Assembly (NCBI GenBank): GCA_044892525.1
Contig: CM097885.1
Span: forward strand, 25,546,001 to 25,610,000
Source: Schmidtea polychroa
Lineage: Eukaryota
Reading direction: 5' to 3'
DNA length: 64,000 nt
The notes under the pieces are model-generated. The model searched no databases. It had not been told where the DNA came from and worked only from the letters and a program-made list of their open reading frames with translations. Shown here one piece after another: positions 8,310 to 60,209 of the stretch (the stretch's first letter is position 1; each line of letters starts with the position of its first letter). Both the position numbers and the translations under genes were made by a program.

Positions 8310-8603
8310 AGTAGTGGATATAAGACCCTTCCGAAAACAACCCCTCAGGTATATGAGCACACCCCATCCTCTGCTTAAACAACCTCCAAACACTTAACAA
8401 ATAATAATAACAAATAATAACAACCACAAATTTTTACACTTTCAACACAAAAGCCAAGGGTTTTCACTTTAAGCCTATAAACAGAAAGAAAACGACCAAG
8501 AACGGGCTCTCGCAAACTACCAAGGGGTTATGTTCGGAAGGGTCTTATATCCACTACTTATAGTATTGTGTTGGCAAGCTGCCAAGTTAGCAAATTGCTA
8601 ACT
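8310..8603 (+). repeat. Left terminal inverted repeat of element A
   Basis: Reverse complement of 23397-23668 with indels. Long identical blocks include TCAACACAAAAGCCAAGGG...CGCAAACTACCA and ACTTATAGTATTGTGTTGGCAAGCTGCCAAGTTAGCAAATTG. Confidence 0.93.
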
Positions 8604-8664
8604 AAAATTATAAATATTTTAAAAATATGAAAACATCCCACCCAATAAAAAAATTTTTTAAAAA

Positions 8665-11600
8665 ATGAATTCTAATATTTATAATTGTACTATTTGCAAA
8701 AAAAATTTTAAAAATAAAACTGCACTACTATCTCACCAAAAATCAAAAGACCATTTATTAAAAATAAATAGACTTGATAATTCAAACTCAAAAATTTGTT
8801 CAAAATGTAAAGAAAGATATTTACTTTCAGGATATGATAAACATTTTGAAAGCTGTATTGGAGTTCCTAAAAATAGAGAAAAATTTGAATGTCCTATACG
8901 TGAATCAAAATTTAATATAAAATCTTATTATTTAAAACATGTAAAAAAATGTGCTATAAAGAACAAACAATCAATACCTAAAAGAGACTCTGATTCTGAA
9001 GAAGAAGATTCTGAAGATTTTGAACCTGAACATATTGAAAAAGAAAAATATAATTGGGACAACTTCAATCACATAGATATATTTGCAGAACAAATGTTTT
9101 CCTCCACAGCCTCAGACTATATAAGAAAAAATAAACAAAACATAAAAAATTCAATGGACAATGCTATAAAAAAATTTGGTCGATCAAGATTCAACATTAT
9201 AAAATATAAAGTTAGAATCTCGGCAAAATATTGGAGAGGAGAAGAAGTAGAAACAACTCCTCTAAACTCTGATATTGAAACATCTTTTAAATATTTATTC
9301 TCAACAAAGGGAATAAATAAAATCATCAAGGATTTAACTGAAGAGATGGAAGAACAACAAGAACAAGTAGAACAAGAATTGGGAGAATCAAATTTAAGAT
9401 TCCATTCTTTCAAATCTATAGAAATTGAATATTGGAGAGCAGCACCCCCAAATCCTAAATCTTTTATTCATACACCATTCCCCTCCAACTATGTTATAAA
9501 CGTACAGAATAAAGATGATAAATGTTTCCAATGGTCAATACTTGCACACTTACATCCTCAAGCAAGGAATCCTCAAAGGGTTTCAAAATATAAACAATAT
9601 GAAAATGAATTAATATATCCAAAAGGATTTAAACATCCAATGAAAATTGAAGACATTCCAGCATTTGAAATTTTAAATAATATTAAACTTAATATTTATG
9701 AATACGTTCCCCGTAAAGATGATTTTAGGAAACATATTATACCAATTTATATTTCAAATAAAAAACTATTAGAACAAGATAAAAATAGAGAAATAGATCT
9801 TTTAATATTAGAAGAAGGGCGAAGCCCCACGGGGCAAGATCAAAGTTATAGAGAATATAGGGAATATGTTTTTAATGAAGAAGGTGAAGATGAACAAGAT
9901 TTAAATCTTCATCCTATCCAACAAGATGAAGATTTGAATATTGAAAGGAAACAACATTATATTCTAATAAAAAACTTTCAAAGTTTTATGCGTACAACAA
10001 CACAAGTTAGAGGTGGAACAACTTGTAAAAGATGTCTTCACTATTCAACATCTAAAAACTCAATAATTAAACATGAAAGATTGTGTGACAAGAACCAACC
10101 TACATTAATTAAAATGCCTACAAACTCAGACATGAATTTTAAAAATTATTCAAATTTATTAGAATCAGTAGGTGTAATATATGGAGACTTTGAAGCAGTA
10201 AATATAAAACATGTTTTAGAAAAAGAATATTTAAAAATAATAGAAAATAATAATTTATCAGATTCTTGGTATGATTATTTGCCAAAGGCACCAAGACTAA
10301 CATGGGAGAGTATGAAAAACTTTCTAAAGTTAAATAATAAATCCTATACAATAAAAGAAACTAAACAAATACCATCAGCTTATAAACTATTTTTTAAAAG
10401 TAATTACCCTGAACTCATAGAATCTAAAGAATATTCATATAGAGGAACTTCTTCAGAAGATGTTTTAAATCATTTTAGTAAAAATATAAATGATTTAGAA
10501 CATGAACTATTTAAAATATTAAAAACAAATTATGAAATAAATTTTTCAATTGAACAATGGGAAGAATATAAAAATACTTCAAATTGTTGGATGTGTAAAC
10601 AACCATTTGAGGATACTTCAGATATAGAGTCTTTGAATACCGAGTCTTTGAATACCGAGTCTTTGAATACCGAGTCTTTGAATACTGAACAACTTGAAGA
10701 AGAAGAACAAAGATTGTTTCATGAAAGATTGCAAACTTTGAATAATGAAACTCAAAATATAAAAGTCCCCGATCATGATCATTTTAAAAAATCAAACAAT
10801 TATAGAGGACCAGCTCATACAAACTGTAACATAAATTGTAAAAAACCTAAATTTATACCAGTTATATTTCATAATCTTTTTGGATATGATATACATTTAT
10901 TTATAAAACACCTAGCAGCAAATGCTAAAAATTCTTTCAAAGTAATAGGACTAACAAAAGAAAAATATAAATGTGTACAATATGGTTGTTTAAAATTTAT
11001 AGATTCTCTAAATTTTTTAGGAATGTCCCTAGATGCAATAGCTAAAACAATGAAACCAGAAGATTTTAAATATACAATAGAGCAAGTTTTGATAAAAAAT
11101 AACATTCCCTTGGAAGAATATCCAACATGTTTAGCAAAAGGAATATATCCATATGATTATATTGATTCATTTGATAAATATAATGAATCGAAATTACCAC
11201 CACAAAAGGAATTCTCTCAAAACTACAACAATCAAATATTACAGATCAAGAATATTCTCGAGCAAATAAAATGTACCAATTATTCAACTGTAAAAACCTT
11301 GGGGAATATACCGACATGTATTTATCCCTTGATGTTTATATTTTAGCAGATTGTTTTGAAGGATTTTGTAAAGCCTTTGAATTAAAACCTTATAATTATA
11401 TAACAGCACCCTCTTTAGCTTGGGATATATTATTATATAATATATGGACTGATGAAGATGTGGAATCAAGAAATAAAATAATAGAATTATTAACTGATCT
11501 TGACATGTTTAATGTATTTAAATATAATATTAGAGGAGGTATTAGTTCTGTAATGGGAGATAGAGAAATAACTGCAAATAATTGGATGACTCTTTATAGA

Positions 11601-13309
11601 AAATTCTTTAAAGATACAGATGCAAATAAAAAATCCCAGGAGGCTCTAAATTAATAAAAGAGGGTTTATCAAATCCATGTGAAATATTTTATCCTGATGC
11701 ATCTGCTCTATATGGAGGTGTAATGACTCAACATTTACCAATTGGAAACTTCACCTGGGTTGATATTCCTAAAGAAAAAGATAAACTAGAAAAACTTTTA
11801 AATGAAATATTATCAACTGAAAAAGATTCAGAAATAGGATATGTCATAGAATGTGATCTCGAGTACCCAGATGAAATAAAATCTAGAACTAGATACTTTC
11901 CATTTGCACCAGTAAAAAGGAAAATAGACGTCAATGAACTTTCAGATTGGCAGATCGCACAAAATAGACCTACTACTACAAAACTTTTATGTGACCAAAC
12001 AAATCGAACTTATTATCTTTGTCACTATAGGCTTCTACAATTTTACATCTCTCATGGAATGATATTAAAAAATATACATTCTATTATAAAATTTAGACAA
12101 CTACCATTTATGAAAAAATTTATATATGGAAACATTAGAAAAAGAAATGAAGCAAAAAGAAATGGAAATGCATTTCTAGATATGATATACAAACTTTTAA
12201 ATAATGCAGTCTTTGGTAAGACTATGGAGAATGTTGATAAATACACTCGAGTAGAGTTGTTAAAAAATACTCCTAGATACTTTGCAAGATATAATAGAAT
12301 GCTTGGAAAACCAACATTTAAAAATGCCGAAGTATTCTCAAAGAACCTAGTTGCAATTGAAATTCAAAATAATGAAAAAACTTATAATAAACCAATCTTT
12401 ATAGGTTTCTCTATTTTGGAATTATCAAAATTACAAATGTATGAGACCTACTATGATATTCTACTACCTCACTTTGGAGATCGAATATCCTTACATGCAA
12501 TGGATACAGATAGTATGTTTTTAAAAATATATGGCAAAGATGTGAAAAAAGAAATACTCGAAAGTGAAGTGCTTTCAAAACTAATAAATGCATCTGGAGA
12601 ATTATTCACATTCAAAGATGAAAAGCCAAATACCCCAATAATTGGTGCTATATTTATTAGAGCGAAACAATATTCACTTGAAATGATAGAAAGCCCGAAA
12701 ACAATAACACAAACAATTAAAATCATGTATAAAAACCCAATAACCCTTGAAATGGAAGAAATAGATTATACATTTGAACGACCAATAATGACCTCAGACA
12801 CAAAAACCCTTAAAGATAACAAATGCAAAGGGATACAAAAATCAGTATCTAAGAAAATCACACACCAAGATTATAAAGATGCTCTAAATATAAATTATTC
12901 AGATAAAATAGAAGAGGTACATCAACTTAAATCCGAGAAGCATGATATGTATTCAGAAGAATCAGCTAAGATATCACTATCAAATTATGATGATAAAAGA
13001 TTTATTCTAAGCGATTTAAAAACAACTCTTCCAATTGGAAATGATTTAATACCAATAATAAAAAAACTTACAAGCTTGAATGATCTCTATGGTACAAACA
13101 TAACAGATGTTCAACTTAGTAAAGTTGAAATAGTTTACCCTAGAAGATTTATTACTCAAAAACCTCTATATAATCAAGTTCAAAAATCAATACCTATAGA
13201 TATTAAATATTTAAATATAGATTCTAAATATATTCGAGGGTTATCAGAAAAAGAATTTGAATCCCATAGAGAACATCTACTTTCAATCATAACTGAATCT
13301 AATTTTTAA
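8665..13309 (+). pseudogene. Protein-primed family B DNA polymerase (pPolB), split into three ORFs by frameshifts
   Basis: N-terminal C2H2 fingers, exonuclease motifs YGDFE and FHNLFGYD, KGIYPY, IRGG, KLLNNAVFGK and MDTDS. Colinear with the 1397-aa ORF at 53302. Confidence 0.95.
10627..10686 (+). repeat. 15-bp tandem repeat x4 (ESLNT) inside pPolB
   Basis: GAGTCTTTGAATAC(C/T) repeated four times; absent from element B. Confidence 0.9.
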
Positions 13310-13318
13310 ATATATAAA

Positions 13319-13561
13319 ATGTCGACAATTAATTTAAGGTATTCAAAAGCTAAGGAACTTGTAGAAAAAACTAAAAAATTATATAATGTTGTTGATGAAA
13401 TAGTTAAAGATAAAAAAGAATATTATTTAAAACTTAAAAATATAATATTTTTTATTATGTTTTTTATATTAATTATAATATCCATCCTTCTATTTTATTT
13501 TTATCCTCAAATAAAAAAATTATCTAACAGATTTTTAGGGACTTCGTATTGGTCTACGTAA
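13319..13561 (+). CDS. Small predicted single-pass membrane protein
   Basis: 80-aa ORF with AAAATG start and hydrophobic stretch IIFFIMFFILIIISILLFYFY; the start is retained in element B at 57747. Confidence 0.5.
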   Translation: MSTINLRYSKAKELVEKTKKLYNVVDEIVKDKKEYYLKLKNIIFFIMFFILIIISILLFYFYPQIKKLSNRFLGTSYWST

Positions 13562-13909
13562 TATTTCCTCTATTTCCTTCATTATTTCTTCATTCCGAGC
13601 AGCATCAGAACTATTTAATAATACATGTTTTGTATGCATAGATTCTATAAAACTTTTATCAACTAAATTAGCACTTTGGAATAAATATTCATTCTCTTCC
13701 TTTATTGCTTTATTTTCCAGACGAAGATCAACAGTCCTATTCATTAACCTCTTTAATATTTCTTGTCCAGCACGATAAACAATAGCCCGTCTGCCATAGT
13801 CAATTTGAGTTCCCATACTTTGTTTATTAAATTCTGTCAAAAGCTTTACACATTCTTTTTGTATTTCAGGTTCTTCATTAATTGTCGCAATGATTGAATC
13901 ATAATCCAT
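13535..13909 (-). CDS. Hypothetical helical protein of element A
   Basis: 124-aa ORF with AAAATG context, packed among viral genes. Confidence 0.6.
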   Translation of the reverse strand: MDYDSIIATINEEPEIQKECVKLLTEFNKQSMGTQIDYGRRAIVYRAGQEILKRLMNRTVDLRLENKAIKEENEYLFQSANLVDKSFIESMHTKHVLLNSSDAARNEEIMKEIEEILRRPIRSP

Positions 13910-13937
13910 TTTATATTTTAAAATTTAAAAATTTTAT

Positions 13938-14555
13938 TTATCTTGCAAGAATATTCTTTAATTGTTTTTTGCTTATTTCTTCCTCATCTTCAGAATGACC
14001 TTCAAATTCTTCTTCTTCTTCCTTTTCTTTATTATTAAAGATACCAGACGGGAATCCAGAGGCCAGGTTCCCAGAAGGTCGCGAAGCTCCAGATGCTGAA
14101 GGTAACCCAGAACCTAAAGTATCTTTTGATTTAGTATTCTTAAAAATATTATGGTTTACTCCATTAGATTTAAGACCTGAACAGATATGATTCTGAGAAG
14201 ATTTACTAGATTTAAAAACTTTTGAACAATCTGTACAATAAAAAGATTTCCCTGTTAGGATGTTTGTTTCATCAGGTGGGGGTCTAGTTTCAACCTTATA
14301 CTTTTTATTCCTTTTACTTTTAACACCATGTCTAAAAGGAGAACCCATTCCTAAATCATTTCTTATTCTTCTCATAGTAGAATCTGAAAGTCATTCTGAA
14401 GTACCCAACATTTTACAAATTTGAGATTGAGTAAAATTAGGATTCTCACTTAAAAGTTTAGTAAACTCTAAAGCTTTTTCTTTTAATAAAAACATGTTTA
14501 ATTTAGAAGTATCAACTATAGCAACCTGATCTACTTTTTTTTAAAATGCATCCAT
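13938..14555 (-). pseudogene. HTH plus C2H2 zinc-finger DNA-binding protein, disrupted
   Basis: Upstream sequence reads FTQSQICKMLGTS..(stop)..SDSTMRRIRNDLGMGSPFR, an HTH-like pattern, followed by FYCTDCSKVF...H. Confidence 0.6.
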
Positions 14556-14589
14556 TTTATATATTTATAATTTTAAATAATTTTTAAAA

Positions 14590-15188
14590 CTAATAAGAAT
14601 TCTTTATGGAATAGTCTTTCAACCATTTCTCCCGTTTAATTTTTTTAGAATATTCATTAGTTATAACATTAGCACTTTTTAATCTTATAACCTCATTTTT
14701 AATATCTTGTATTATTTGATTTGATTTCATTATTTCATCGTTAGTTATTTCATCGTTATTCCATCTTCCAAAGCTTTTAATTGAAATAAAAATAATTTAG
14801 AGATTCCTAATTCTATTGATAAACAAACTTCACGATATAAACTTTTCTTTTTAGAAGTATAAGATAATGAAACTATTTCAGTTAAGAAACCATCAGCTAC
14901 AGAAATACTTCCAAGTATTACAGGTGCAATTGTTAAAACTGGTAAAGTTATAGGTAAAATAACTGTTAATATTGCAGATGTAAATCCTAAAGAATAACCT
15001 ACAACTTTTAAAACTGTATTCCCTTTATTCCATCTATTTTTAATTTTTTTATAATGCTTTAATAAATCTTGTAAATGTAAGGTTTCTGATTTAAATTCTT
15101 TTACTCTCATAATTTCAAGTTCTGTGGGAGCCGAGGGATATCCTGATGATCTCAATTCTGGATAAATTTTTTCTTCTCTTACTTCCAT
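14590..15188 (-). pseudogene. Polinton coiled-coil/transmembrane protein with YPEL and PSAP motifs; 3' frameshift
   Basis: Hydrophobic hairpin plus KALEDG motif; intact 192-aa homologue at 57827-58405. Confidence 0.75.
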
Positions 15189-15196
15189 TTTAATAA

Positions 15197-16153
15197 TTAA
15201 AAAAATAAGACTTTATTATCTGGTACTAATGCTCGCATTTCATAATAACCTTGTGTTGAGAGAATGTCTTTATATAATTCCATCAATGCTTTATGAACCT
15301 CATCAACATCAACCTTTTTTTCATAAAATATTAAATCTATATATTGTACAAGTGTGCTTTTAAAAATAATATTCTTACTTTTAGTTTTATGTGGATTAGT
15401 TTTACCTGAATGAGTTTTACCACGCCAATATCCATGTGTTAAATCATAACCAGTAATTATAACATCACACTTTTCAAGCTTTCTATTATAATTACTATTC
15501 ACAAACCATTTCATTGTTTCACCATCATCATCAAATAAAAGGAAATAAAGATCAATAATCTTTACAACCATAAAAACACTCCAATTTTTACTATTTGTTG
15601 TTATTGAAGTTGGTTCTATAAAATGTTTATATGTATGGGGTAATAATGTTTTATTCTGTTCTAATTCAGCAGCTCTTTTTCTAATACTATGTGTGGTGTT
15701 AATGTGTGTTTCATGAGACTCTAAATTTGAAAGTCTTTTATTAAATGATGTAATCATCTCATTTATTATATTATATATTGTATTAAATTTAGTATTCATA
15801 ATTTGTTTATCTTTAGAATTTAATATGCTAGTATTTAACTTTACAACTTGTTCAGTTAAAAGACTTTGTAACTTGTCAAATTTATCATTAAATTGTTGTT
15901 CGATATTATTAAGCTTTGTTGTTAATGAACTTTCAATTCTTGTTGTTGTTAAATCAATATATTTCTTATTAACTGCATCAAATTCATCAATTGGAGAAGA
16001 TAATTCTTTTATCTTGTGTCCATTTAAATTTAAATCTCCTTTCATTGAATCACCTCTTTCATTAACATATCTCTTTTCTGTAAGAGATATAACATCTTCA
16101 TCTTTTAATCCATCATTATATAATCCCAACTTATTATAATTAGCATAATTCAT
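15197..16153 (-). CDS. Putative virion fibre/spike protein
   Basis: GDSMKGDLNLNGHKIKELSSP..DAVNKKYID resembles tail-fibre/adhesin neck repeats. It is followed by a coiled coil and a C-terminal domain, and lies next to the penton. Confidence 0.65.
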   Translation of the reverse strand: MNYANYNKLGLYNDGLKDEDVISLTEKRYVNERGDSMKGDLNLNGHKIKELSSPIDEFDAVNKKYIDLTTTRIESSLTTKLNNIEQQFNDKFDKLQSLLTEQVVKLNTSILNSKDKQIMNTKFNTIYNIINEMITSFNKRLSNLESHETHINTTHSIRKRAAELEQNKTLLPHTYKHFIEPTSITTNSKNWSVFMVVKIIDLYFLLFDDDGETMKWFVNSNYNRKLEKCDVIITGYDLTHGYWRGKTHSGKTNPHKTKSKNIIFKSTLVQYIDLIFYEKKVDVDEVHKALMELYKDILSTQGYYEMRALVPDNKVLFF

Positions 16154-16171
16154 TTTTATAGTAATAAAAAT

Positions 16172-16948
16172 CTAGACTTGTTTCAAATGTAAACACATTG
16201 AAATCTTTTCTCCATTAAAATTAATTAAATCCCCATTTTCATCAACAATTCTAAAACTAATATCCATTATATTTTTTCTACATAAAGGTAAATAATTTGG
16301 GGGATTCATTCTTTCAACCATTTTATATCCAACTCGCACGGTATTAGAAGGAAAGGAATGTAAAATATTTGCATGTTTACCATTATTGTATGATCCCATT
16401 ATACAATCACACTCTATATTTATAGAATTTGTATTTGTTAATTGTATAATATTTTTAGATTTAATAGGTGAATGGTTGGTGCCATAAGCTCTAGCTTCAA
16501 AACCTAAAATACTATGAATCAAGTAACTAGAAGCAGTAACAGTAAGTCCAACATTTTTTAAAGTTGTAATACATTTTGAAGTTTGAATATCTGCTTTTAT
16601 TTCTACTTCTCCATTTGTTTCTTTTAGAATTGTTTTAGCCAAATCTGCTATTTCATATGATCCTGGTTCGATTGTTATAGTGGTGGATTTAATAACTGAA
16701 AAAGGATCTTTGGATGAAATATCACTCTTAATTATAATAAATTTATTATTATTATTATTTATATTAAAAATAGTATTAAAACAGCTAAACCACAAGAGTC
16801 CTAATTCATAATTTAAATCTTGATCTAAATTTATTGAATCTTCAAAATTTATAGTAAAGTCTGATTCTTTTGAATTTATTAATAAACTTCTTGAATATTT
16901 ATCTGACATTATGTTTACCATTTTTTTTAAATTATCTTCCATTTTCAT
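16172..16948 (-). CDS. Minor capsid protein (penton, single jelly-roll)
   Basis: SDFTINF..I.L...YELGL, IEPGSY, CDCIMGSYNNG..NILHSF and IVDENGDLINFNGE..LHLK patterns typical of Polinton pentons. Confidence 0.88.
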   Translation of the reverse strand: MKMEDNLKKMVNIMSDKYSRSLLINSKESDFTINFEDSINLDQDLNYELGLLWFSCFNTIFNINNNNNKFIIIKSDISSKDPFSVIKSTTITIEPGSYEIADLAKTILKETNGEVEIKADIQTSKCITTLKNVGLTVTASSYLIHSILGFEARAYGTNHSPIKSKNIIQLTNTNSINIECDCIMGSYNNGKHANILHSFPSNTVRVGYKMVERMNPPNYLPLCRKNIMDISFRIVDENGDLINFNGEKISMCLHLKQV

Positions 16949-17403
16949 AGTAGAGATTTTAAATCATTATAAATTTCTTGGATTAAGGAAGTGAAACCTT
17001 CTCCTTTGGAATTATTCAATCTATACAAAACATATAAACTTATAATACCACATATTTTAGTATTATTAGGTTGAACTTGTAAAGAATTAAAAGTATAGTC
17101 CTTCGGGGAACTCTTCGGGGAATCCCTCGAGAGATAGTCTTCAACTTCTTTAGTAGGTTTAATCCCAAAAGAATCAAAGTATATAGATTTATTATATATA
17201 CAAACCCAATGAGATCCTTTTTCATTTGAATTTTGATAATTGATTATTATATTCTTTGGAGTGTCTTTCAGAATCGACAATTCATCATTCATTAATATTT
17301 TTATTTTTAAATTTAAATAACCTGCATAATCTTTTAAATCAAAATTTGTTTTTGCATTTATTCCAAATGTTTTTAAAAAATCTAATATTGAAGAATTAGT
17401 CAT
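16945..17403 (-). CDS. Adenain-like cysteine maturation protease
   Basis: GSHWV, YFDSFG and Q...ICG give the His/Asp/Gln/Cys catalytic motifs. Confidence 0.93.
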   Translation of the reverse strand: MTNSSILDFLKTFGINAKTNFDLKDYAGYLNLKIKILMNDELSILKDTPKNIIINYQNSNEKGSHWVCIYNKSIYFDSFGIKPTKEVEDYLSRDSPKSSPKDYTFNSLQVQPNNTKICGIISLYVLYRLNNSKGEGFTSLIQEIYNDLKSLL

Positions 17404-18274
17404 TTTATATACTTGTTAAATTTATCTTTTGAAATTATTCCTTGTTTTAACAAATCTTTAGAAATCTTTAAAATATCAGAATCTAAATTATTATGTCCTG
17501 CTTTTTTAGCTGCTAATAGTTTTCTTAATTCAATAAAAAGGTTGATGGGATTTCCAACCCTTATACCATCACCTTCTTTAACAATATAACCCCTTTCATT
17601 TTTATCTAAATATTTCTTTAAATCTTGAATATGATTTGCTTTGGGGCTACCACGTATTAATTTTATTAAATTTAAATATTTTTTAATTTCTTCAACATCA
17701 TCTGAAGGATATCCACAAAGTAATCTATAAAAATCATCTGTAAATTCAAAGTCTAAATATTCATTATTATAAACATTTGTGAATGAATACGTGATTTATT
17801 TTCTGAATTTGAATATAAAGTAAAGTTTTGTTTATTAATTGTTATTATTGAATATCCTTCAGAATTAATATGAAATGTGGGTTTAATTGTATCGCTTAAA
17901 CCTTCTCTAATTTTAGGATCAACTTTAAGAGGTTTTGTTTTTAAAAACATTTCTTCTTCTTCCACACCAGAAATTCTTCTACGTTTTCTTTGATTTCTTT
18001 CAGTGAGCTCTGTTGTTTCTTTATCTTCAAACCTTTCAGTGGATTCTTTTCCCTGCCACTCTAGTTCTTTTATTTTTTGTTTTTTATCTTCCAACTCTTT
18101 AAATTTTGCTTGCACATTTAAATCTTTTATAGCTTTAATTGTTGGTCCTTGTTGTTGTTGGATTACCTCATTTAATATTATTGATTCAGCATGTTGAGTT
18201 ATATCTTTTTTATTATACTTGATTTGTTCAGATTGTAATTTTTTTAAAAGTGCTAATCTTTCTTCATATACCAT
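17404..18274 (-). pseudogene. Conserved Polinton core-like protein, frameshifted near 17755
   Basis: Homologous to intact 60654-61493, sharing the N-terminus MVYEERLALL and the C-terminus ELRKLLAAKKAGHNN in another frame. Confidence 0.75.
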
Positions 18275-18284
18275 TTTAATGGTA

Positions 18285-18863
18285 TCATGGTTCGAAGGGT
18301 TTCAAGTACAAACCTTTACCATTTTTAAGTTTACAGGTGCACCCATTTTTTAAGAACTTACACATTATTTTAAAATCATCTTTATCTTTTGAAGATAAAG
18401 ATTCAGATGATGAAATTTGATTTTTTAAAAAATCATTTAAACCCCGGCCTTTATAAGGATCAAGATAAAGCCCCTTTCCCCTGGAGGAACTCCCCTCATA
18501 AGGATCAAGATAGAGACCCTTTCCCTCATATGGATTAAGATAAAGTCCTTTCCCCTTAGCTTGCCCTACCTTTTTCATTGAATCGATTTCAGTTTGTAGT
18601 TTTTCTTTTTCTAAGTCTGTTTTTTGAGATTCTTTAGATTTTTGAACTGTAGTTGCAATTCCTCCAGCTATTCCAGCAGCACCTGATAAACCAGCAATGA
18701 TTGCAGGTATTAAAGCAGCTAATGGAAGAATGCCACCTTCTTTAAGTTTTTCTTTAACTTGTTCTTTTACTTGTTTTCCAATAAAATATTTTTTACCATC
18801 AATTACAACTGATTTATTTTTATTTGAATTTATTAATTCTTGTAAAGATTCTTCAGTTGTCAT
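18285..18863 (-). CDS. Adenovirus pX-like membrane-active core protein with repeated GKGLYLxP motifs
   Basis: EGGILPLAALIPAIIAGLSGAAGIAGG resembles the adenoviral pX GG^ILPLLIP segment. Four GKGLYLxP(Y/F) repeats follow. Confidence 0.75.
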   Translation of the reverse strand: MTTEESLQELINSNKNKSVVIDGKKYFIGKQVKEQVKEKLKEGGILPLAALIPAIIAGLSGAAGIAGGIATTVQKSKESQKTDLEKEKLQTEIDSMKKVGQAKGKGLYLNPYEGKGLYLDPYEGSSSRGKGLYLDPYKGRGLNDFLKNQISSSESLSSKDKDDFKIMCKFLKNGCTCKLKNGKGLYLKPFEP

Positions 18864-18878
18864 TTTAAAATAAATAAA

Positions 18879-19668
18879 ATGGATATTTGGAAACCAATTT
18901 TAAATAGACATAAATCTAAATTTAATAATAAAGTATTTCCTGATAATTTTAGATTATTAATTGTTGGTTCTTCTGGATGCGGAAAGAATGTACTTGTTTT
19001 GAAAATGTTGCTTGAAGATGGTTTTTTAGATTATAATAATTTAATCTTTTATTCTACAACTATAAATCAACCAGAATTACAACTTTTGAAATGTGGATTT
19101 GAAAATAAATTAACTAAAAAAGCAATAATTGATATTTTTAAAAATCAACATAGATGTCCTGAAGAAGTTTTTCAACCTTGTGATATAGTTGATTGGTATA
19201 AGGAAAAGATTTTAGAATCAGATATTAATAATAAAAATGATTACATCTGTGAAGACCAGGGGCAAGCAATTCAAGTTTTATTCTCTAATAAACCTGAAGA
19301 TGTTTTACATTGTGATTTACTTCCTAAAGATAAAAAGAATCTAGTTATATTTGATGATGTTGTTAACATGAAAAATCAAGAGATTCAAGAGTTACTTTAC
19401 AAGAGGAAGACATAATAATTGTAATGTTATTTATATATCTCAAACTTATTATGCTTTAGATAAAAACTCTATAAGAAATAATTCTAATTGTTTTATATTT
19501 TTTAAATTAGATCGCCGTGATAAGAATATGATTTATAATGATTTATTTTCAAATGTTGAACCCGATAAGAATATGTTTGATATGTTTGTTGATAATCATT
19601 GGAAAGAAAAATATAATTATATTTATTTGGATAGAGAAGAAGCTGAAATATGGAAAAGTTTGTTTTAG
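18879..19668 (+). CDS. A32/FtsK-like genome packaging ATPase, needing a +1 frameshift near 19395
   Basis: Walker A GSSGCGKN and Walker B LVIFDD. The +1 frame continues FTRGRHNNCNVIYISQ...IRNN...WKSLF* to 19668. Confidence 0.92.
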
Positions 19669-19763
19669 GAGCCTTTGGCTCCCACAAAGTTAAAGGGTTA
19701 TTAATTTAAAAGCTTGATTTCTATAATTCCTTTTGAATCTATAATTCCCTTTGAATCTTTATT

Positions 19764-21199
19764 TTAGAAATCTGTTTTCTGTAGTTCGTTATTATAAAAT
19801 CTACCTACTATTTTTTCATTATTTAAATCAATGATGCTATATGTTATTGCAGTTGTATAATGTATTTTAGTTATAATAAAAATTTCATTTGTCCATTTTG
19901 CTGTGAATCCTTTTTCAAATTTATTTTTATATTTAAATATTCTTACTCGGTCACCAATTTTAAATTTTGGTTTTTCAATATTTACCACTCTAATTCCTTT
20001 GGAATCCATAATTCTTTCAGGAAATAAAGAAGCATTTAAAGGTGTTGATTTTATAGAACTATGTACATCATTATTATATTCATTTACAATCTTTTGTAAC
20101 AATTCATTGTTCCATTTTTGTTTTCCAATAGCAGTAAAATATTTCCACATTTTATTTTTTAATGTTCTATTTAATCTTTCAACCACAACTGCTTTTCCTT
20201 CGTTTTCTGTTGAATATAATTTAATATCATTTTCATTTAAAAACTTTGTAAAAACTTTGTTATAAAATTCTGTTCCTTTATCACACCATAAATATTTTGG
20301 AATTCTTTGATGTTCTTCAAATATATTTTCAAATGCTTCTGTAATGGAATATCCTGTTTTATTTTCTAAACATCTTGCAAAAGCAAATCTTGTATATAAA
20401 TCTATTACAGTTAAAATTATTTTATATTTTTCAGGGTCTGATGATTTGGTTGGCATAAAGACTAAATCGGCAGACCATGTTTGATCTTTTTCATGTACTT
20501 GAACTTTTAAATATTTTTTATTTTTTCTAAATTCATGGTGTAATTCGTTGACATATTTTATTTGTGATTCTGTTGGGGTTTGTAAATTTGTAGAATCAGT
20601 CTTGGATATATTCTCAAGGGATCTTTCAGCGTCTGCTTGTTCAATAATCTTTTTATTAGCAATATCTTTTGCTTTCCTAGCAAGTCCTGCACCTATGAAA
20701 ATCTTACCTTTCATTGCTAATTTAACTAGAGCTCTTTGAATCTTTTCTTGGGTTGATGGATTTTGGATATTATTTAAATCATGTATTAAATTCACATCTG
20801 CAACATGCCTATCTCTAAGATTTTCTGAATTGTAAGCAATATCATGTTTTAAAGCTGCTTGGTCGATTCTATTTATTGGCTCTTCTCCTTGTTTGGGATT
20901 ATTATTTTCATCTAATCTAATATCTAATCTTGTTCCTGGTCCAGTATAATTGTGTTTAAATAAATGTCTTTCACCTGGATATTTTTCTGTAGTAAAAAGT
21001 TTTAATATTGAAGATGTTGTTTTTGAAGATTGTAGATCGCCTCCTTCAAAAGCAAATCTACTTGAAGGATTGGGTTCTAACCAAGAATTAGTATTTGATC
21101 CAAGTATGTTTTTTTAGTTTTTAAATGATTTGCTTTGTGATGTTTTGTAACTTGACAATTACAAGTTTCACATCTCCAATAGCGAATCGATGGAGACAT
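19764..21199 (-). CDS. Zinc finger (frameshifted) - parvovirus-type PLA2 - retroviral-like (rve) integrase polyprotein
   Basis: The frame is open from 21113 to 19764: HNYTGPGT...PINRIDQAALKHDIAY, then DDE motifs WSADL, WCDKGTEF and VERLNRTLK. An upstream ATG at 21199 encodes CETC..H.KTKK in another frame, joined at an A7 run. Confidence 0.9.
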
Positions 21200-21214
21200 T
21201 TTATTTAGATATTT

Positions 21215-22499
21215 TTAAGAATCTCCCCTAACATTTTCGATTATTGAAATCTTTCCACCATATAATTTCATTTCTATTTTCTTTTCTTCTAATATTAATG
21301 TATATACTTTAGCTTTAAAATTAGAATCCTTTGTTACATGAAGTGTAACATCAACATTATTTATAGCTAGGCGATCATCTTGGTCTGAAACATTTATACA
21401 AAATATAGAATATAAATTTTTGAAATCTTCTAAACTTAATTGCGGTTCAACTTTGAAATCATAACATGTTTCAATATAATTTAGATATGGGAATATGTTT
21501 TCATTATTTTCAATATTAAATTCCATTCTATTTATTGGATAATAAGAACTATTTAATTGAATTTGGATTGTTTTTAAATTATCATTTCCAATCATTTGAA
21601 TAAATAGATTGTTATTTTTTTGGAAAGATGAATCTACTTCTTTGAATCCAATCAAGATATATCTTGGTCGGTATGCTAAATTTGCTACCTTTATAGAATA
21701 TGTTGAACCCTCTGTCATACTAAATTCACTACAGATTCTATTTAAATAATTTACATTTAGACTTGTTGGAATTTAATCTTTCAAGGAGTTTGATTTCAGA
21801 ATGTGGGTTTAATGTCCATTCAGGTATATGCAATTCAAGTGTTGATAATTTTAATTTAGCTTTTGTATCTGCAGCTCCATAGAACAATCTTTTATCACCT
21901 TCTAGTCTATTACAAACTAATTCTATAAAAACATTATGAAGTATACGGTTATAATTTTGAAGGAATCCAAAAAAGTGTTTTAATTCAAAATAACCTTCAA
22001 ATTTTTTAGATTTATAAAGTTCAACTCTTTTATGGTAACCATGGTTTACATCTAAACCATCTTTATCTAAATCTCCTTTATTAGTATCAGGAATCCAACC
22101 CGTTAATTCACCATATTCATTTTTATAATCACAACCAGTTAAAATAAAATTTAACATTGTAGAATATACTCCTGGATGTAAAACAGTTTCAATTTCTGAT
22201 GATCCTAGTTTTAATCTCATGTTGGAGAATAAATTTGGAAAGAAATTATTTTCTAGAGTTATATCTTTGTTTGCTTCAATTTCTAATTCAATTTTATAAT
22301 ATAATTTAGCATTACAAATATCTATTGGGTTTGATGTTTGAAGAGATTGAAAAACTATATCACACCTACGATTTAAGTTTGCAATAGATCCTGAAGTTGG
22401 CGAGATTTTTAAAATATCTTTTTTCTTGATTTCATGAGTAAATTCTTTATTCTAATCAAGATTTAATTTATTTTTTTCTTGAATTTTTATATTATTCAT
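21215..22499 (-). pseudogene. Major capsid protein (double jelly-roll), one stop plus one frameshift
   Basis: About 430 codons from ATG 22499. Motifs TLENNFFPNLFS.MRLKLG..EIE, LKHFFGF, RPRYILIGF, QLNS.YYP and YSIFCINVS. TAG at 22452-22454 and a frameshift near 21760. Confidence 0.85.
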
Positions 22500-22547
22500 T
22501 TTTATATATTAAAATTAATATACCCAATAAAAAAAAATATTTATAAA

Positions 22548-22790
22548 ATGATTGACTTAATTGAAAGAATGAGAAATGAATTGAATGAAGTTAAACATAA
22601 GAGAATGAAAAGAAGAGAAGAAGAACCATTAGAATAAATCAAAGAGTTGATGGTAGAGAATGAAAAGTATCGACATTTTTACATGAAAGCTGTAGAAGTT
22701 GCTGAGATAAGGTTAAAGAAAATGAAACAATTACAGGAAAGAGTTAAAGAACTTGAATCGATTATTTATAGTCTAAAAAAATGAGAAAAA
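22548..22790 (+). pseudogene. Small coiled-coil protein with internal stop
   Basis: MIDLIERMRNELNEVKHK...LE*IKELMVENEK...LQERVKELES. Preceded by the same CCAATAAAAA motif as pPolB. Confidence 0.5.
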
Positions 22791-22794
22791 TCCA

Positions 22795-22877
22795 AACCTA
22801 GATAGCGCAGTGGGTTAGACTGGCACAGTGGTTCAAATGGATAGTGGTTCAAATCCCATCTGAGGTTAGGTTTTTTT
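22795..22877 (+). ncRNA. Candidate Pol III small RNA 1 (tRNA-like promoter)
   Basis: A box TAGCGCAGTGG at 22803-22813, B box GGTTCAAATCC at 22846-22856 and T7 terminator at 22871-22877. An inverted copy lies at about 53103-53185. Confidence 0.65.
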
Positions 22878-23007
22878 CAACATAAAATAATATTAAAAAT
22901 TTGAAAATAATAGTGTGGGTATCTTAGATTTATAAAGTAGTTGTATATTTTATTTTATTTATTTTATTTTAATTTTTAAACATAAATATGAAAAAAAAAT
23001 TATTGAA

Positions 23008-23304
23008 ACGGGTGTGATGGCGAACCGGTAATTATCGCCACCAGTCTTTCAAACACCCCCGGATCGATTCTATAATGTGCACATTTATTTCTCGGTTGTT
23101 TTCGGACCTCTTTAGAATTCACTTTCGAATTCATTTGTACTTTCGAGCAGCACGCTTATTATCGAATTGATTCTGATGTATGAGTCTGGCCAGCTTGTAT
23201 ATTGGAAGAGATTTGATAAACGAAAGAGGTTGAAATGATCCGGATCAAAAAACTGTTGAGAGGACAGTGAAAAAAAAATACCACTGTCCTCTCAGAGCAG
23301 TTTT
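23008..23304 (+). ncRNA. Candidate Pol III structured RNA 2
   Basis: A-box-like TGGCGAACCGG at 23018-23028 and B-box-like GGATCGATTC at 23061-23070. Nested stems and a terminal 12-13 bp hairpin followed by TTTT. An inverted copy lies at about 52588-52950. Confidence 0.55.
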
Positions 23305-23396
23305 ACTATTTCATAAAATTTTTTTATTCTTCAAGACATCAAGATTAAGATTTATTTTATATTTATAATTTTATTCAACTCAGTTAACATTCTGCT

Positions 23397-23668
23397 CAGT
23401 TAACAATTTGCTAACTTGGCAGCTTGCCAACACAATACTATAAGTGCCTCCTGAACATAACCCCCTGGTAGTTTGCGAGAGCCCGTTCTTGGTCGTTTTC
23501 TTTCTGTTTATAGGCTTAAAGTGAAAACCCTTGGCTTTTGTGTTGAAAAATAGAAGGTCTAAAAGGGTTAAAAGTGTAAAAATTTGGGGTTGTTATTACA
23601 ATAAGTTAAGAGTTTGGAGGTCGCTAAAACTGAGGGGTTGTGTTCGGGAGGGTCTTATATCCACTACT
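23397..23668 (-). repeat. Right terminal inverted repeat of element A
   Basis: Reverse complement of 8310-8603; ends ...CCACTACT followed by the TSD. Confidence 0.93.
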
Positions 23669-52280: not shown

Positions 52281-52587
52281 TATGTCTTTGTTCCCGGGTC
52301 CACACAATACCCTACTGTGTATATATACCCAACTAACACAACCCTCCCAACAAAAACATACCTCCATTATGCTTAAACCATTAGAAAAACAACACAAAAC
52401 CTATACTTTTATAGTATTTTAACACCATATTTTAAACAACAACCACCCTTAATCTTTAAAGCCTCAAACTCAAAAGCTTCAAACTAAAAAGAGAATAGAA
52501 AAGAAAATGGCATTATGAAAAAGTTAGAGGGCTATTTGATCTTTATCAGATCATTGATTTTAAATTATATAAATTAAAAAATAAATG

Positions 52588-52950
52588 AAAAATAGTAAAA
52601 CTGCTCTGAGGGGACAGTGGTATTTTTTTTTTCACTGTCCCCTCAACAGTTTTTTTGATCCGGATCATTTCAACCTCTTTCGTTTATCAAATCTCTTCTA
52701 ATATACAAGCTGGCCAGACTCATACATCAGAATCAATCCGATAATAGCAGCACACCTTATTATTCGTTTCTCGCTCGAATATGATTTCATCGGCGTTTTA
52801 AGCGTGCTGCTCGAAAGTACAAATGAATTCGAAAGTGAATTCGAAAGAGGTCCGAAAACCACTGAGAAATAAATGTGCACATTATGGAATCGATCCGGGT
52901 GTGTTCGAAAGACTGGTGACGATAATTACCGGTTCACCATCACACCCGTT
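52588..52950 (-). ncRNA. Candidate Pol III structured RNA 2, element B copy (longer)
   Basis: Reverse complement of 23008-23310, with an extra arm GCAGCACGCTTA...TAAGGTGTGCTGC and B-box-like GGATCGATTCC. Confidence 0.55.
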
Positions 52951-53102
52951 TCAATATTTTTTTTTTCATATTTATGTTTAAAAAATTAATTAATTAATAA
53001 AATATATAAAATAAAATAAAAATAAATAAAATAAAATATAAATCTAAGATACCCACAACATTTTCAATATTATTTTCAAATTTTTAATATTATTTTATGT
53101 TG

Positions 53103-53185
53103 AAAAAAAACTAACCTCAGATATGATTTGAACAACTATCCATTTGAACCACTGTGCCAGTCTAGCCCACTGCGCTATCGGGCTT
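53103..53185 (-). ncRNA. Candidate Pol III small RNA 1, element B copy
   Basis: A box TAGCGCAGTGG (53177-53167), GTTCAAAT boxes and a T8 run on the minus strand. Confidence 0.55.
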
Positions 53186-53301
53186 TGGATTTTTATTATA
53201 AAAATCTAAAAATTATACTGTCACATTATGAAAATGAATAATATATAAATTTAAAAAATAAAATCAAAACTGAGTATCCAATAAAAAATTTTTTTCTAAA
53301 A

Positions 53302-56300
53302 ATGAATTGTAATATTTGTAATAAAGTTTTTAAAAATAAAACTGGATTAATTTCTCACTTAAAATCGAAAGCTCATTTATTAAAAGAAAATAATCTTAAT
53401 GATACAAATTCAAAACTTTGTCCTAAATGTAAAGGAAGATTTCTACATTCTGGATATAATAAACATTTTGAAAATTGTATCGGGAAAAATAGAGAAATAT
53501 TTACATGTCCTCATTGTAACTTTTCAACAAAACTAAATTTCTATTATTTAGAACATATAAAAGAATGTAAAAATAAAAAACAAAATTCTGACGATGAGGA
53601 ATGTCATTCAGAAGGAGAACCTGATCATGTTGAAAGAGAAAAATATAACTGGGATAATTTTAATCATATAGATGAATTTCAATTAAAAATTAATGGACCT
53701 GCAACTCCTGGAGAATATATAAATAAAAATAAAAAAAATATTAAAAATTCTTTCACTGAAGCTTTAAAAAATTATAAACCGACAAGGTATAATGTTATAA
53801 AATATAAAATTATAATCAAATCAAAATACTGGCGAGGAGCAGAAGAAAAGACAACACCCTTAGATGTTGAAATTGGAATACCTTTTAAATATTTATTTTC
53901 AACTAAAGGATTTGATAAAACCATCAAAGAAATAATTAAAGCAGCAGAAGCAAAACAAGAGGAAGTAGAAAATGAATTAGGAGATTCAAACTTAGTATTC
54001 AACTCTTTCCAAACTTTAGTGATTGATTATTGGAGAGGATTACCACCCAATCCTAAATCTTATATTCCTACACCCTTTAAATCTAAAAATGTTATAAATG
54101 TACAGAATAATGATAACAAATGTTTCATCTGGTCAATACTTGCACATTTACATCCTCAAGAATCAAACCCCCAAAGAGTTTCAAAATACAAACAATATGA
54201 AAATGAATTAATATTTCCCCAAGGATTCAAACATCCAATGAAACTAGAAGACATTCCAGAATTTGAAAAATTAAATAATCTTAAAATTAATATTTATGAA
54301 CGGGTTAAAGGGAAAAATATTAAAAGTAGAGAAATTATTCCAATTTACATTTCTGATAGTGGAACCAAGGATAACGAAGTACAAGATAACAAAAACCCTA
54401 GAGAAATATATCTTTTAATCTTGGAACAAAAAAATAATCAACATTATGTTTTAATAAAAAACTTTCAAGCTTTTACATCACCAGAGAATCCAACTAGTAG
54501 AGGAGGAACATGTAAAAGATGTCTTCATTATTCAACAACTAAAAACTCTATGATTAAACATACAAGATTTTGTGAAAAAGATGAACCAGCTTTAATTAAC
54601 ATGCCTACAGATCCCAAGATGAATTTTAAAAACTTTTCAAATTTACTACAAACAGTAGGAGTGGTTTATGGAGACTTTGAATCTATAAATCGTAAACAAG
54701 ATTTGGTTAACCAATATTTAAAAATAATAGAAAAAAATAAACTCATGGATTCATGGAACTCCTCAGGAGAGAAGATGAAACCAGAGAGGATGAAAGCCTT
54801 TCTAAGAAAAAGAAATAAACCTATTAGTGTTAAAAAAACTAAACAATTACCTTCTGCTTATAAACTATTATTTAAAAGTAATTATCCTGAACTCATAGAA
54901 TCTAGAGAATATACATTTCAAGGAACTTCAGAAGATGTTTTAAATCATTTTACTAAAAGTATAAATGATCTAGAACATGAAATATTTAAAGTATTAAAAA
55001 CAAAATATGAAATAAACCTTTCAACCGAACAATGGGAAGAATATGAAATTTCTTCAAATTGTTGGATGTGTAAACAACTCTTTGAGGATCAACTCCTTGA
55101 GGAACCTCCAAATAATGAAACTATTGAAGAAGAAGAACAAAGAATGATTCATGAAAGACAATCTTCAAACATAAAAGTCCCCGATCATGATCATTTAAAA
55201 AAGGAAAATAATTATCGAGGAGCAGCTCATAAAAATTGCAATATTAATTGTCATACTCCTAAATTTGTACCTGTTATATTTCATAATCTTTTTGGTTATG
55301 ACATACATCTATTTATTAAACATTTAGCAGAAAATGCTAAAAACTCTTTCAAAGTTATAGGACTTACAAAGGAAAAATATAAATCAGTTGAATATGGAAA
55401 ATTAAAATTTATAGACTCGTTAAACTTTCTTCAAATGTCTCTAGATGCAGTAGCAAAAACAATGAAACAAGAAAATTTTAAAATCACTCGAGAATTCTTG
55501 GAAAAAAATAATATTCCTCCAGAAGAATATCCTACATGCTTAGCAAAAGGAATATATCCCTATGACTATGTTGACTCGTTTGAAAGATATAATGAAACAA
55601 GTCTTCCTAGCCAAGAAGATTTCTATTCACAACTTCAAAAAAATCATATTACAAATCAAGAATATTCTCGAGCAAATAAAATGTGGGAATTATTCAAGTG
55701 TAAAACTTTAGGAGAATATACAAGTATGTATTTATCCTTGGATGTTTATATTCTAGCAGATTGCTTTGAAGAATTTACAAAATCTTTTGTTCTTAAACCT
55801 TACAATTATATAACAGCACCCTCTTTAGTTTGGGATACTTTATTATATACCATTTGGACTTCAAATATAGAAGAAGGTGATAAAATTATAGATCTTTTAA
55901 CTAACCTCGATATGTTTAACCAAATTAAAACAAACATTAGAGGAGGAGTCTCTTCAGTAATGGGGAATAGAGAAATAAAAGCTAGAAATGCAATAACTAC
56001 TAGCAGAAGGCTTTCAAAGACCTCTGATCCATATATAAAAATTAACAATGAGGAATTAAAAGAATTATTAGAAACAATGAAAAATCCTCTATTTATACTT
56101 TATATAGATGCAACAGCTCTATATTCAGGAATTATGACTCAATATTTACCAATGGGTGACTTTCATGAAATATACTCTGAAGATTCCTCAGAAGAATCCT
56201 TAAAAGATCTTATAAAAGAAATACTTTCAACTCCTAAAGATTCTCCAATAGGTTACTTTGTAGAATGTGACTTATTATATCCAGATGATATAAAATCAGG

Positions 56301-57495: not shown

Positions 57496-57826
57496 GTTAT
57501 ATGATACAAAAATTATTGATCTTGATATTTATAATGTTGAAATCATTTATCCCGAGAGAGAAATCGAGAAGCCTTTATATTCTCAAGTTTTTAATCCTAT
57601 ATGTTTAGAACTTAAATATTTTAATACTGATCCTGAATATATAAAAGGTCTAAGTGATAAAGAATTTAAAGATCATAAATTAATGATTCATAGGTTGGCT
57701 TTCAACCATAACTGAAACCAACGATATTTAATTTTTTAATAATAAAATGTCGACAATTAATTTAAGCAACTATAGCAACCTGATCTACTTTTTTTAAAAA
57801 TGCATCCATTTTATATATTTATAATT

Positions 57827-58405
57827 TTAAGAATTCTTTAACCATTTCTCTCGTTTAATTTTTTTATTAGTTATAACATTAGCACTTTTCAATCTATTAA
57901 TATTATTTTTAATATCTTGTATTATTTGATTTGATTTCATTATTTCATCATCAGTTAAGATTCCATCTTCCAAAGCTTTTAATTGAAATAAAAATAATTT
58001 AGAGATTCCTAATTCTATTGATAAACAAACTTCACGATATAAACCTTTCTTTTTAGAAGTATAAGATAGTGAAACTATTTCAGTTAGGAAACCATCAGCT
58101 ACTGAAATACTTCCAAGTATTACAGGTGCAATTGTTAAAACTGGTAAAGTTATAGGTAAAATAACTGTTAATATTGCAGATGCAAATCCTAAAGAATAAC
58201 CTATAACTTTTAAAACTGTATTCCCTTTATTCCATCTATTTTTAATTTTTTTATAATGCTTTAATAAATCTTGTAAATGTAAGGTTTCTGATTTAAATTC
58301 TTTTACTCTCATAATTTCAAGTTCTGTGGGAGCCGAGGCCTTGGAAGAATAATATCCTGATGATCTCAATTCTGGGTAAATTTTTTCTTCTCTTACTTCT
58401 TCCAT
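57827..58405 (-). CDS. Coiled-coil/transmembrane protein, homologue of 14590-15188
   Basis: Near-identical translation; KALEDGILTDDEI. Confidence 0.85.
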   Translation of the reverse strand: MEEVREEKIYPELRSSGYYSSKASAPTELEIMRVKEFKSETLHLQDLLKHYKKIKNRWNKGNTVLKVIGYSLGFASAILTVILPITLPVLTIAPVILGSISVADGFLTEIVSLSYTSKKKGLYREVCLSIELGISKLFLFQLKALEDGILTDDEIMKSNQIIQDIKNNINRLKSANVITNKKIKREKWLKNS

Positions 58406-58413
58406 TTTAATAA

Positions 58414-59423
58414 TTAAAAAAATAAGACTTTATTCTTCTGAGCACCATCTGGTACCAATACTCGGATATCAAAAGAAACTCTTGTTGAGTGGATATCTTT
58501 ATACAATTCTCTCAATGCTTTACGAACTTCATCAACATCAACCTTTTTTTCATAAAATATTAAATCTATATATTGTACAAGTGTGCTTTTAAAAATAATA
58601 TTCTTACTTTTAACTTTATGTAGTCCATGTGAATGAGTATTAACATACCAATCTCCGTGTGGTAAATCATAACTAGTCATTATAACATCACCCTTTTCAA
58701 GCTTACTATTATAATCACATTTCACAAACCATTTCATTCTTTCATTATCATCATCAAACAAAAAGAAATAAGGATCAATAATCTTTACAACCATAAAAAC
58801 ACCCCATTCTTTACTGTTTGTTGTTATTAAACTTGGTTCTATAAAATGTTTATATGTATGGGGTAATAATGCTTTATTCTGTTCTAATTCAGCAGCTCTT
58901 TTTCTAATACTATGTGTGGTGTTAATGTGTGTTGTATGAGATTCTAATTTGAAAGTCTTTTATTAAATGATGTAATCATCTCATTTATTATATTATATAT
59001 TGTATTAAATTTAGTATTCATAATTTGTTTATCTTTAGAGTTTAATATGGCGGCATTTAACTTTACAACTTGTTCAGTTAACAGACTTTGTAACTTGTCA
59101 AATTTATCATTAAATCGTTGTTCGATATTATTAAGCTTTGATTCCATTGAATCCATTTTTGTTGTTAATGAACCTTCAATTCTTGTTGTTGTTAAATCAG
59201 TATAATTTTTAACACCATCTACATATTTCTTATTAACTGCATCAGCTTCATCAGTTGGAAAAGATAATTCTTTTATCTTGTGTCCATTTAAAATTAAATC
59301 ACCCTTCATTGAATCACCTCTTTCATTAATATATTTATTTTCTGTTAAAGTTAATATTTCTTCTGTATTAAACCCTGTTTTTATTGTTCCACCACCTCTA
59401 TTACATGGAATATAAGAACTCAT
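58414..59423 (-). pseudogene. Fibre-like protein, frameshifted near 58945
   Basis: Two ORFs matching the N- and C-halves of 15197-16153. Confidence 0.75.
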
Positions 59424-59447
59424 TTATTAATAATTTAAAATGAATCT

Positions 59448-60206: not shown

Positions 60207-60209
60207 TTC

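Follow-up and report, generated by a model that had tools for sequence, protein, structure and literature searches.

Polintons are treated as protein-only elements, and their terminal inverted repeats (TIRs) as signals for replication and integration. The locus described here raises the question of whether a planarian Polinton family also carries RNA genes of its own. The host is most likely a dugesiid planarian, its HSP70 having 94% identity to a protein of Dugesia japonica, which is the top value among the 120 matches listed. In a stretch of 64,000 nucleotides (the window) from an AT-rich host genome of 781 Mb, a non-coding block next to a Polinton capsid gene holds two units, each with an A box and a B box of the type found in RNA polymerase III (Pol III) promoters. 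From the sequence alone it had been predicted that this block is a subterminal cassette of two structured Pol III RNAs, comparable with the tandem VA RNAs of adenoviruses and encoded by the element itself.

The cassette and its carrier elements

The carrier of the cassette, element A (8310..23668), has a 6-bp target duplication and termini with the Polinton hexamer. It contains pPolB in pieces (8665-13309), an ATPase with a weak A32-like match (18879-19415), an rve integrase (19764-20714) and a double-jelly-roll capsid gene, which among the ORFs scanned is also in pieces (21215-22220), while the cassette is present at its right end only. Element B is represented by its left part (52313..64000), which starts near 52313 and carries pPolB at 53302-57495, while the four A/B units of its right end are located outside the window. 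All the features of a Polinton/Maverick were found in the carrier family, namely pPolB, rve integrase, A32-like ATPase, double-jelly-roll capsid, TIRs and the 6-bp target duplication. The window also holds a second, different Polinton-like remnant (45695-51437) with a chromodomain-containing integrase and an A32-like ATPase, in which an ORF at 48728-49192 is TBP-like (Pfam TBP, E 8e-15) and another, at 51117-51437, has a weak Bcl-2-like match (E 0.001).

Unit 1 (22796..22877, plus strand) is a predicted, degenerate Pol III unit of tRNA size without a conserved fold, with an A box at 22803-22813, a B box at 22846-22856 and a T7 run at 22871-22877. An AT-rich spacer with T-runs and variable simple repeats (22878..23009) separates it from unit 2 (23010..23304, plus strand), a predicted Pol III transcript which is 295 nt long in copy A and about 260-390 nt among the 83 copies extracted. 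The A box of unit 2 is at 23018-23028, its B box at 23061-23071 and its T4 end at 23301-23304, followed by a backup T7 at 23319-23325. Boxes, T7, the stems 23059/23237 and 23106/23223, the terminal hairpin, the T4 end and an internal T4 (23099-23102) are all located where the original prediction had placed them. The predicted inverted copy in element B was likewise recovered, at 53194-52572 and with 82% identity to copy A, including an indel of about 54 nt; on the minus strand there, unit 1 occupies 53105..53185 and unit 2, with 351 nt and an extra hairpin domain absent from copy A, 52597..52947. This optional domain (about 52747-52798) is cleanly absent from many copies, copy A included, via several different deletions. 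A T-run followed by CG and a purine occurs about five times in unit 2 (23044-23147) and resembles a partial B box or UUCG loops.

A scan for A and B boxes with at most one mismatch per box found exactly two pairs in the 64-kb window, i.e. units 1 and 2 of copy A, against one match in total, in one of 40 locally shuffled windows, which puts the two units beyond chance. The boxes are 43 apart in both window units and 42-44 apart in all clustered units of nine whole elements, compared to 44 in two host tRNAs. Both the internal boxes at tRNA-like spacing and a terminal T-run without a strong internal one agree with a type 2 Pol III gene. The last bases of unit 2 are a T4, and in 82 of the 83 copies a run of at least T5 lies no more than 40 nt away; 81 of the copies have no internal T-run of five or more, as a Pol III template requires, while A-runs of 7-27 occur in all 83. 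The internal T4, considered in the original prediction as a possible truncation, need not stop Pol III because host tRNA-Lys(TTT) also has one and read-through of T4 has been reported (PMC8223928).

In the genome, 2,471 sites match a unit 2 35-mer exactly, which corresponds to at least about 1,240 elements, and a unit 1 pattern has 1,437 matches. Among the first 100 matches of the 35-mer, 52 form minus/plus pairs less than 30 kb apart, and intervals of 10-17 kb account for 19 of 30 minus-plus but only 2 of 29 plus-minus neighbors. Thirty loci fetched from the 40 best matches listed, one of them the window itself, all have Polinton flanks and adjoin the pPolB or the capsid gene. Nine pairs, chosen for the 35-mer at both ends, were fetched whole; in four of these the inverted-repeat alignment extended as far as the termini (944-1,005 bp), and three of the four show clear 6-bp duplications. 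By its position, the block makes up the inner part of an approximately 940-bp TIR in a planarian Polinton family, with its units facing outward. It is located at either end of the element and not merely in a subterminal position. That the family encodes tRNA-type Pol III units, as had been predicted, is supported.

Adjoining the cassette are at least five kinds of outer terminus, all with the same end hexamer (outer flanks of loci L041, L042, L049 and L070, and 23398-23668 in the window), and from these junctions the family gives the impression of a mosaic in which pPolB/terminus modules are exchangeable. This attachment to several termini is the reason why the block looks better conserved between A and B (82%) than pPolB (73%) and the outer TIR (no match). 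The predicted higher conservation holds for that comparison, but the integrase (94%) and the ATPase region (90%) are more similar still. Across copies it does not hold, as the diversity of unit 2 (0.032) equals that of the capsid and integrase genes (0.034); capsid third positions (0.062) and one outer TIR type (0.072) are roughly twice as diverse, the sets of copies compared being different for each segment. When loci were chosen by capsid protein alone, the cassette was found beside 28 of 30, and two sister ends were without it. In view of these two ends, and of element A with its single cassette, a requirement for the cassette in cis at both ends is improbable. In a diverged sister element (L181:2400-3900) an unrelated ORF-bearing segment takes the place of the cassette between the capsid gene and the terminus.

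Predicted fold of unit 2 and signs of transcription

Of unit 2, 83 copies (77 distinct) were extracted, two more being without the end anchor, and 62 were aligned, those left out being mostly near-identical ones. Unit 2 folds with a z of -7.0 in copy A (0/200 shuffles as stable) and -8.9 in copy B (0/100), which bears out one half of the prediction of two structured RNAs. The sense strand folds lower than the opposite one in all 62 copies, with a mean of -124 vs -100 kcal/mol, in agreement with the earlier remark that mismatches in two stems are G-U pairs on the A/B-box strand. The structure discussed here was derived from averaged single-copy pair probabilities; an RNAalifold structure was set aside because gaps made its 5' half different and partly shifted. 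The predicted layout consists of a 5' hairpin domain, two long-range helices, a multiloop and a 3' hairpin with a U4 end. The long-range helices (23059-23065 with 23237-23243, and 23106-23113 with 23223-23230; span 23059..23243, plus strand) would close the body of unit 2, and having little variation they are weakly tested. The multiloop is predicted to hold a short hairpin, the optional hairpin and a long G-U hairpin. This last one (23159..23219, plus strand), of 28 bp with a 7-nt loop and of pre-miRNA size, is the most conserved part of unit 2: 99.9% of its alignment cells are paired, and alone it folds with -23.5 kcal/mol in the sense orientation vs -1.4 on the opposite strand. In a strand-neutral scan of element A for hairpins it had eight G-T to one A-C, compared to a total of 7 G-T to 14 A-C in the four other hairpins. 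The 3' terminal hairpin (23250..23304, plus strand) has an A-rich loop and ends in U4. Two hairpins of pre-miRNA size in the downstream part of unit 2, 61 and 59 nt long, have z values of -5.4 and -9.0.

The 89 commonest pairs of unit 2 include 13 G-U and no A-C. This set of pairs excludes the ragged 5' stem and four variable pairs. Within it, 9 of 10 variants present in at least three copies preserve the pairing, as against 11 of 35 rarer variants (Fisher p 0.0014); for transitions alone the contrast is weaker (9/10 common vs 11/19 rare), and one common variant (7/62 copies, both window copies among them) breaks a pair. Covariation, by which the original prediction was to be judged along with box conservation, is thin. 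Two pairs changed on both sides, one a mixed case and the other a clear A-U/G-C swap in the 3' terminal hairpin (G-C 31, A-U 25, G-U 3, unpaired 2, gap 1; n=62). In the control 328 of 500 shuffles reach two such pairs and none reaches the covariation score; one pair (98:282) was counted as unpaired. Since the structure was derived from the same sequences, the variant and covariation counts lean in its favour. Strand-biased deamination was rejected as a source of the G-U excess because substitutions outside unit 2 have no strand bias (C>T plus A>G vs G>A plus T>C: 91 vs 89 among rare ones, 40 vs 51 among shared ones). As far as the sequences of the copies tell, selection for RNA pairing on the A/B-box strand of unit 2 is supported.

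Contigs from four of 17 listed sequencing runs were mapped, the RNA status of the runs being guessed. These runs were found through this stretch, and contig depth is a poor measure of expression that gives no ends or strand. In run X1 (guessed RNA) the summed contig depth is 2,185 in the unit 1 bin, 1,412-22,407 in unit 2 bins up to 23243 and 529 in the terminal-hairpin bin, compared to 0-67 in capsid-gene bins and 125 beside an A-tract upstream; the DNA-like run X11 has 0.7-2.9 million on capsid and cassette bins alike. X1 contigs end at 23234-23236, a 294-nt contig of X3 spans 23063-23278 and ends in A's, and a contig of X5 (other organism label, depth 2.5) spans 23133-23234. The contigs of all three runs stop at A-tracts of unit 2, those of X1 and X3 with loose poly-A. 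Such ends fit oligo-dT priming on sense-strand RNA, and A-tract priming in read-through RNA could make part of the signal. Low-depth contigs cross the T-run of unit 1 and the predicted start of unit 2. The outer TIR and the spacer are without contig cover, to which no weight is given, the outer TIR type of element A being rare in the DNA run too. The contigs of the probable RNA runs are a hint, not proof, that unit 2 is transcribed. As its A-tracts appear to be oligo-dT primed, the interpretation of RNA-seq in planarians may be affected.

Possible functions of the cassette

In the explanation that we prefer, each unit would be transcribed outward, from both element ends, by host Pol III with TFIIIC. 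The products of the short units, RNAs of about 80 nt, would be unstructured, and these units would matter as promoters. Unit 2 would give a folded RNA of about 300-370 nt, presumably abundant because each element has this unit twice and the genome about 2,500 times, with Pol III as the probable enzyme. Its two hairpins of pre-miRNA size, one directly before the U-run, would go to the host Dicer pathway, either as small-RNA precursors or as competing substrates; by analogy, Dicer/Drosha would act on the 61-nt G-U hairpin and on the U4-ended 3' hairpin. The observations from which this explanation starts are the position in both TIRs, the copy number, the box geometry, the folding beyond shuffles, the strand-specific G-U pairing and the pair-keeping common variants. 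Unit 2 is in our opinion probably a real Pol III RNA gene. Given such a gene, the arguments for and against a role in the Dicer pathway are about evenly balanced, and the mechanism as a whole, a Pol III hairpin-RNA gene feeding that pathway, falls somewhat short of even. The 28-bp stem is shorter than a canonical Drosha substrate, and the piRNA pathway, the main planarian defence cited here, needs no Dicer.

For unit 1 the prediction of a structured RNA failed. It is not structured (z +0.43 and -0.82 in copies A and B), and the 5' arm of its supposed closing stem is its most variable part, with a diversity of up to 0.6 per site. What is kept are the boxes, with a diversity of 0.021 vs 0.158 in the rest (48 distinct copies). 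Unit 1 is colinear end to end with host tRNAs and weakly similar to them (1-6 of 300 shuffles reach the score; Lys and Arg were the tRNAs compared), and neither a fold nor an ARAGORN gene gave it a cloverleaf with an anticodon loop. By its sequence, unit 1 is best described as a worn tRNA that kept its promoter, i.e. boxes and T-run. Nor is a tandem pair like VA RNA I and II supported: many copies hold three to four units at the capsid end, i.e. two extra tRNA-sized units, spaced about 240 bp. At the right end of element B (L071:2620-2950) two further tRNA-sized A/B units were seen, one of which presumably retains a remnant of a Cys anticodon loop. A tandem array elsewhere (L183:294-572, 1556-1834) has about 280 bp (83%) in common with the segment between the extra capsid-end units, not with the cassette, and host SRP RNA and tRNA genes are found in long tandem arrays with periods of 593, 424 and 278 bp (L121, L090 and L113). 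The likely role of unit 1 and its sister units is that of Pol III promoters and nothing more, by which the ends of the element would be kept open.

If this were true of the entire cassette, the clustered A/B units would recruit TFIIIC and Pol III and shield the integrated element from spreading heterochromatin as a chromatin barrier; the RNAs would be secondary and the fold of unit 2 would only stabilise a transcript. Units at both ends, two to four per end and about 240 bp or twice that apart, are in favor of such a barrier, and so is the retention of the boxes but not of the rest of unit 1. It is known that tRNA genes can act as Pol III-dependent barriers (PMC2040200), and that planarian Polintons are piRNA targets silenced through SMEDWI-2, as shown for S. 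mediterranea, with repression at the chromatin level (PMC8532177). A barrier leaves unexplained, however, the 300-nt body with strand-specific G-U helices and pair-keeping variants, and in element A, in spite of its target duplication, one end is without the cassette. The barrier is the preferred reading for unit 1 alone; for the cassette as a whole it is the main rival explanation, although we consider it unlikely.

The cassette could also be a hitch-hiking relic, a SINE or host Pol III gene captured once in the TIR, copied to both ends and amplified neutrally, with an inherited fold. A tRNA-type head followed by a body is the anatomy of a SINE, the family is young with everything in it similar, whole hairpins are deleted in some copies and some sister ends are without the cassette, all of which would suit a relic. 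Against this stands the absence of free copies. Of 48 unpaired matches of the 35-mer, sampled in the first 16 Mb of one contig, 40 were fetched; on the inner side 38 of these continue as Polinton sequence, and the remaining two extend into Polinton termini. Polinton flanks in all 40 indicate that the block is not a free SINE: dispersed copies with non-Polinton flanks of their own, expected of a tRNA-derived SINE and of the high-copy host SINE that the original prediction had allowed for, were absent from this sample. Furthermore, common variants keep pairing while rare ones do not, and the cassette has been kept on at least five different outer termini. A source could not be recognized among known RNAs either. 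Rfam gave no match at gathering score and chance-level matches only up to E 10, ARAGORN found no tRNA gene in the cassette, and the 5' end of unit 2 has no tRNA cloverleaf (z -0.26 for the 5' 66 nt) and no significant match to the two host tRNAs tried. An SRP (7SL) origin was rejected, as 93 and 207 of 300 shuffles score as high against host SRP RNA. Searches for a host source gene return best matches only, by which a low-copy diverged source could be missed. We regard a relic as improbable.

The 5' end of unit 2 and its paired GAUC words have what we take to be a 7SK-like look. The 7SK candidate was nevertheless discarded: at E up to 10 the genome yielded no match to RF00100 (19 of 7,497 candidates scored), in a search that would miss a very diverged 7SK. 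Own-genome searches with diverged capsids returned the same family. In 17 capsid loci from metagenomes, with 23-52% identity, most of them short and lacking the ends of the element, neither an A/B pair nor a tRNA was present and cassette matches did not rise above AT-rich noise, a negative that is uninformative; no relative was present in the viral contigs searched. Neither set gave a homologue of the cassette outside the Polinton family.

Unit 2 RNA could instead be a cofactor of the element's own proteins in replication or particle assembly. JAZ-type zinc fingers are a double-stranded-RNA-binding class, and zf-C2H2_jaz/zf-met matches (zf-C2H2_jaz E 2.8e-6 to 8e-4) were seen at the pPolB N-termini (8665-8760, 53302-53380) and in a small ORF (13938-14375), which makes these proteins, or another element protein, possible candidate partners. 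For zf-C2H2_jaz, the Pfam cut-off is passed by element A pPolB alone. One and the same cassette accompanies pPolB genes as different as those of A and B (73% alike), cassette-less ends exist, and such a role seems quite improbable. A signal at the DNA level, in which the stems would arise while the DNA is single-stranded in protein-primed replication or excision, RNA having no role, would suit the TIR location and the folding of both DNA strands beyond shuffles (z -5.6 and -4.4), but as it accounts neither for A/B boxes at tRNA spacing, T-run avoidance and G-U-only wobble nor for the cassette-less end of element A and the probable RNA contigs, it is scarcely credible.

Comparison with known systems

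Taken at its widest, the preferred explanation describes a Polinton with its own Pol III small-RNA system, in which about 2,500 copies of a multi-hairpin RNA gene would yield microRNAs or saturate the host silencing machinery, flanked by promoter-only tRNA relics that would insulate the element. We offer this tentatively and consider it rather doubtful in its entirety. If true, it would be the Polinton counterpart of VA RNA and of the gammaherpesviral TMERs and a possible reason for the expansion of this family past a thousand copies. With a selected, probably transcribed Pol III RNA in the TIR, Polintons would have an RNA arm as adenoviruses, gammaherpesviruses and foamy viruses do, and there would be a testable explanation of how a DNA element can maintain more than 1,000 copies in a host with strong piRNA/RNAi defences. 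No description of structured Pol III RNAs in animal Polinton TIRs was found in the literature searched, which lay outside most subscription papers and Repbase.

The VA RNAs of adenoviruses have internal A/B boxes and terminal stems and compete for Dicer (PMC2777419). Unit 2 resembles VA RNA I and II in its tRNA-like internal promoter, its predicted structured RNA and the related virus lineage. The likeness does not extend to architecture: the terminal stem of VA RNA pairs its 5' and 3' ends, while in the predicted folds of unit 2 these ends are not paired with each other and belong to separate 5' and 3' hairpins. Cassettes are moreover located in TIRs, two per element, and the VA RNA model was not among the Rfam matches up to E 10, so that both the family model and the terminal stem speak against a VA RNA. 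PKR, the other VA target, is a vertebrate protein. A VA-like anti-silencing function of unit 2 is a proposal by analogy.

Non-coding RNA genes are not foreign to this virus group: tRNA genes and other Rfam RNAs were described in polinton-like viruses and virophages (PMC12220804) and tRNAs are flagged in MELD viruses (PMC8502044), where in the part of the text covered 'VA RNA' and 'polymerase III' occur 0 times. Those genes are intact tRNAs or known families recognized by Rfam/ARAGORN, mostly in protist elements, whereas the cassette units escape both programs and unit 2 appears to be a new fold. With tDNA barriers (PMC2040200) the cassette shares clustered A/B-box genes at domain borders, but it is carried by a mobile element and its barrier role is only proposed.

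The closest anatomical parallels are found in two other groups of viruses. The TMERs of MHV68 are a cluster of viral Pol III genes with a tRNA-like 5' part followed by miRNA hairpins (PMC8223928), and unit 2 similarly is a Pol III-type unit with a tRNA-type head followed by hairpins of pre-miRNA size. Unlike in TMERs, this head has the promoter spacing without a cloverleaf, the unit is longer and multi-branched and is located in the TIRs of an integrated element, no triplicated A box was noticed, and miRNAs from unit 2 are a prediction. Pol III miRNA clusters in foamy-virus LTRs, and in BLV, have A/B boxes and U-run ends, are lost from some genomes and are deleted in some passaged viruses (PMC3993851). 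Common to foamy-virus clusters and the cassette are Pol III-type hairpin units in the terminal repeat of an integrating element, missing from some genomes or ends; unlike the foamy-virus and BLV clusters, unit 2 belongs to a DNA-replicating invertebrate Polinton and would give a single long multi-domain RNA, the processing of which is only predicted. By its anatomy, unit 2 would work like the TMER and foamy-virus cassettes while being a member of neither.
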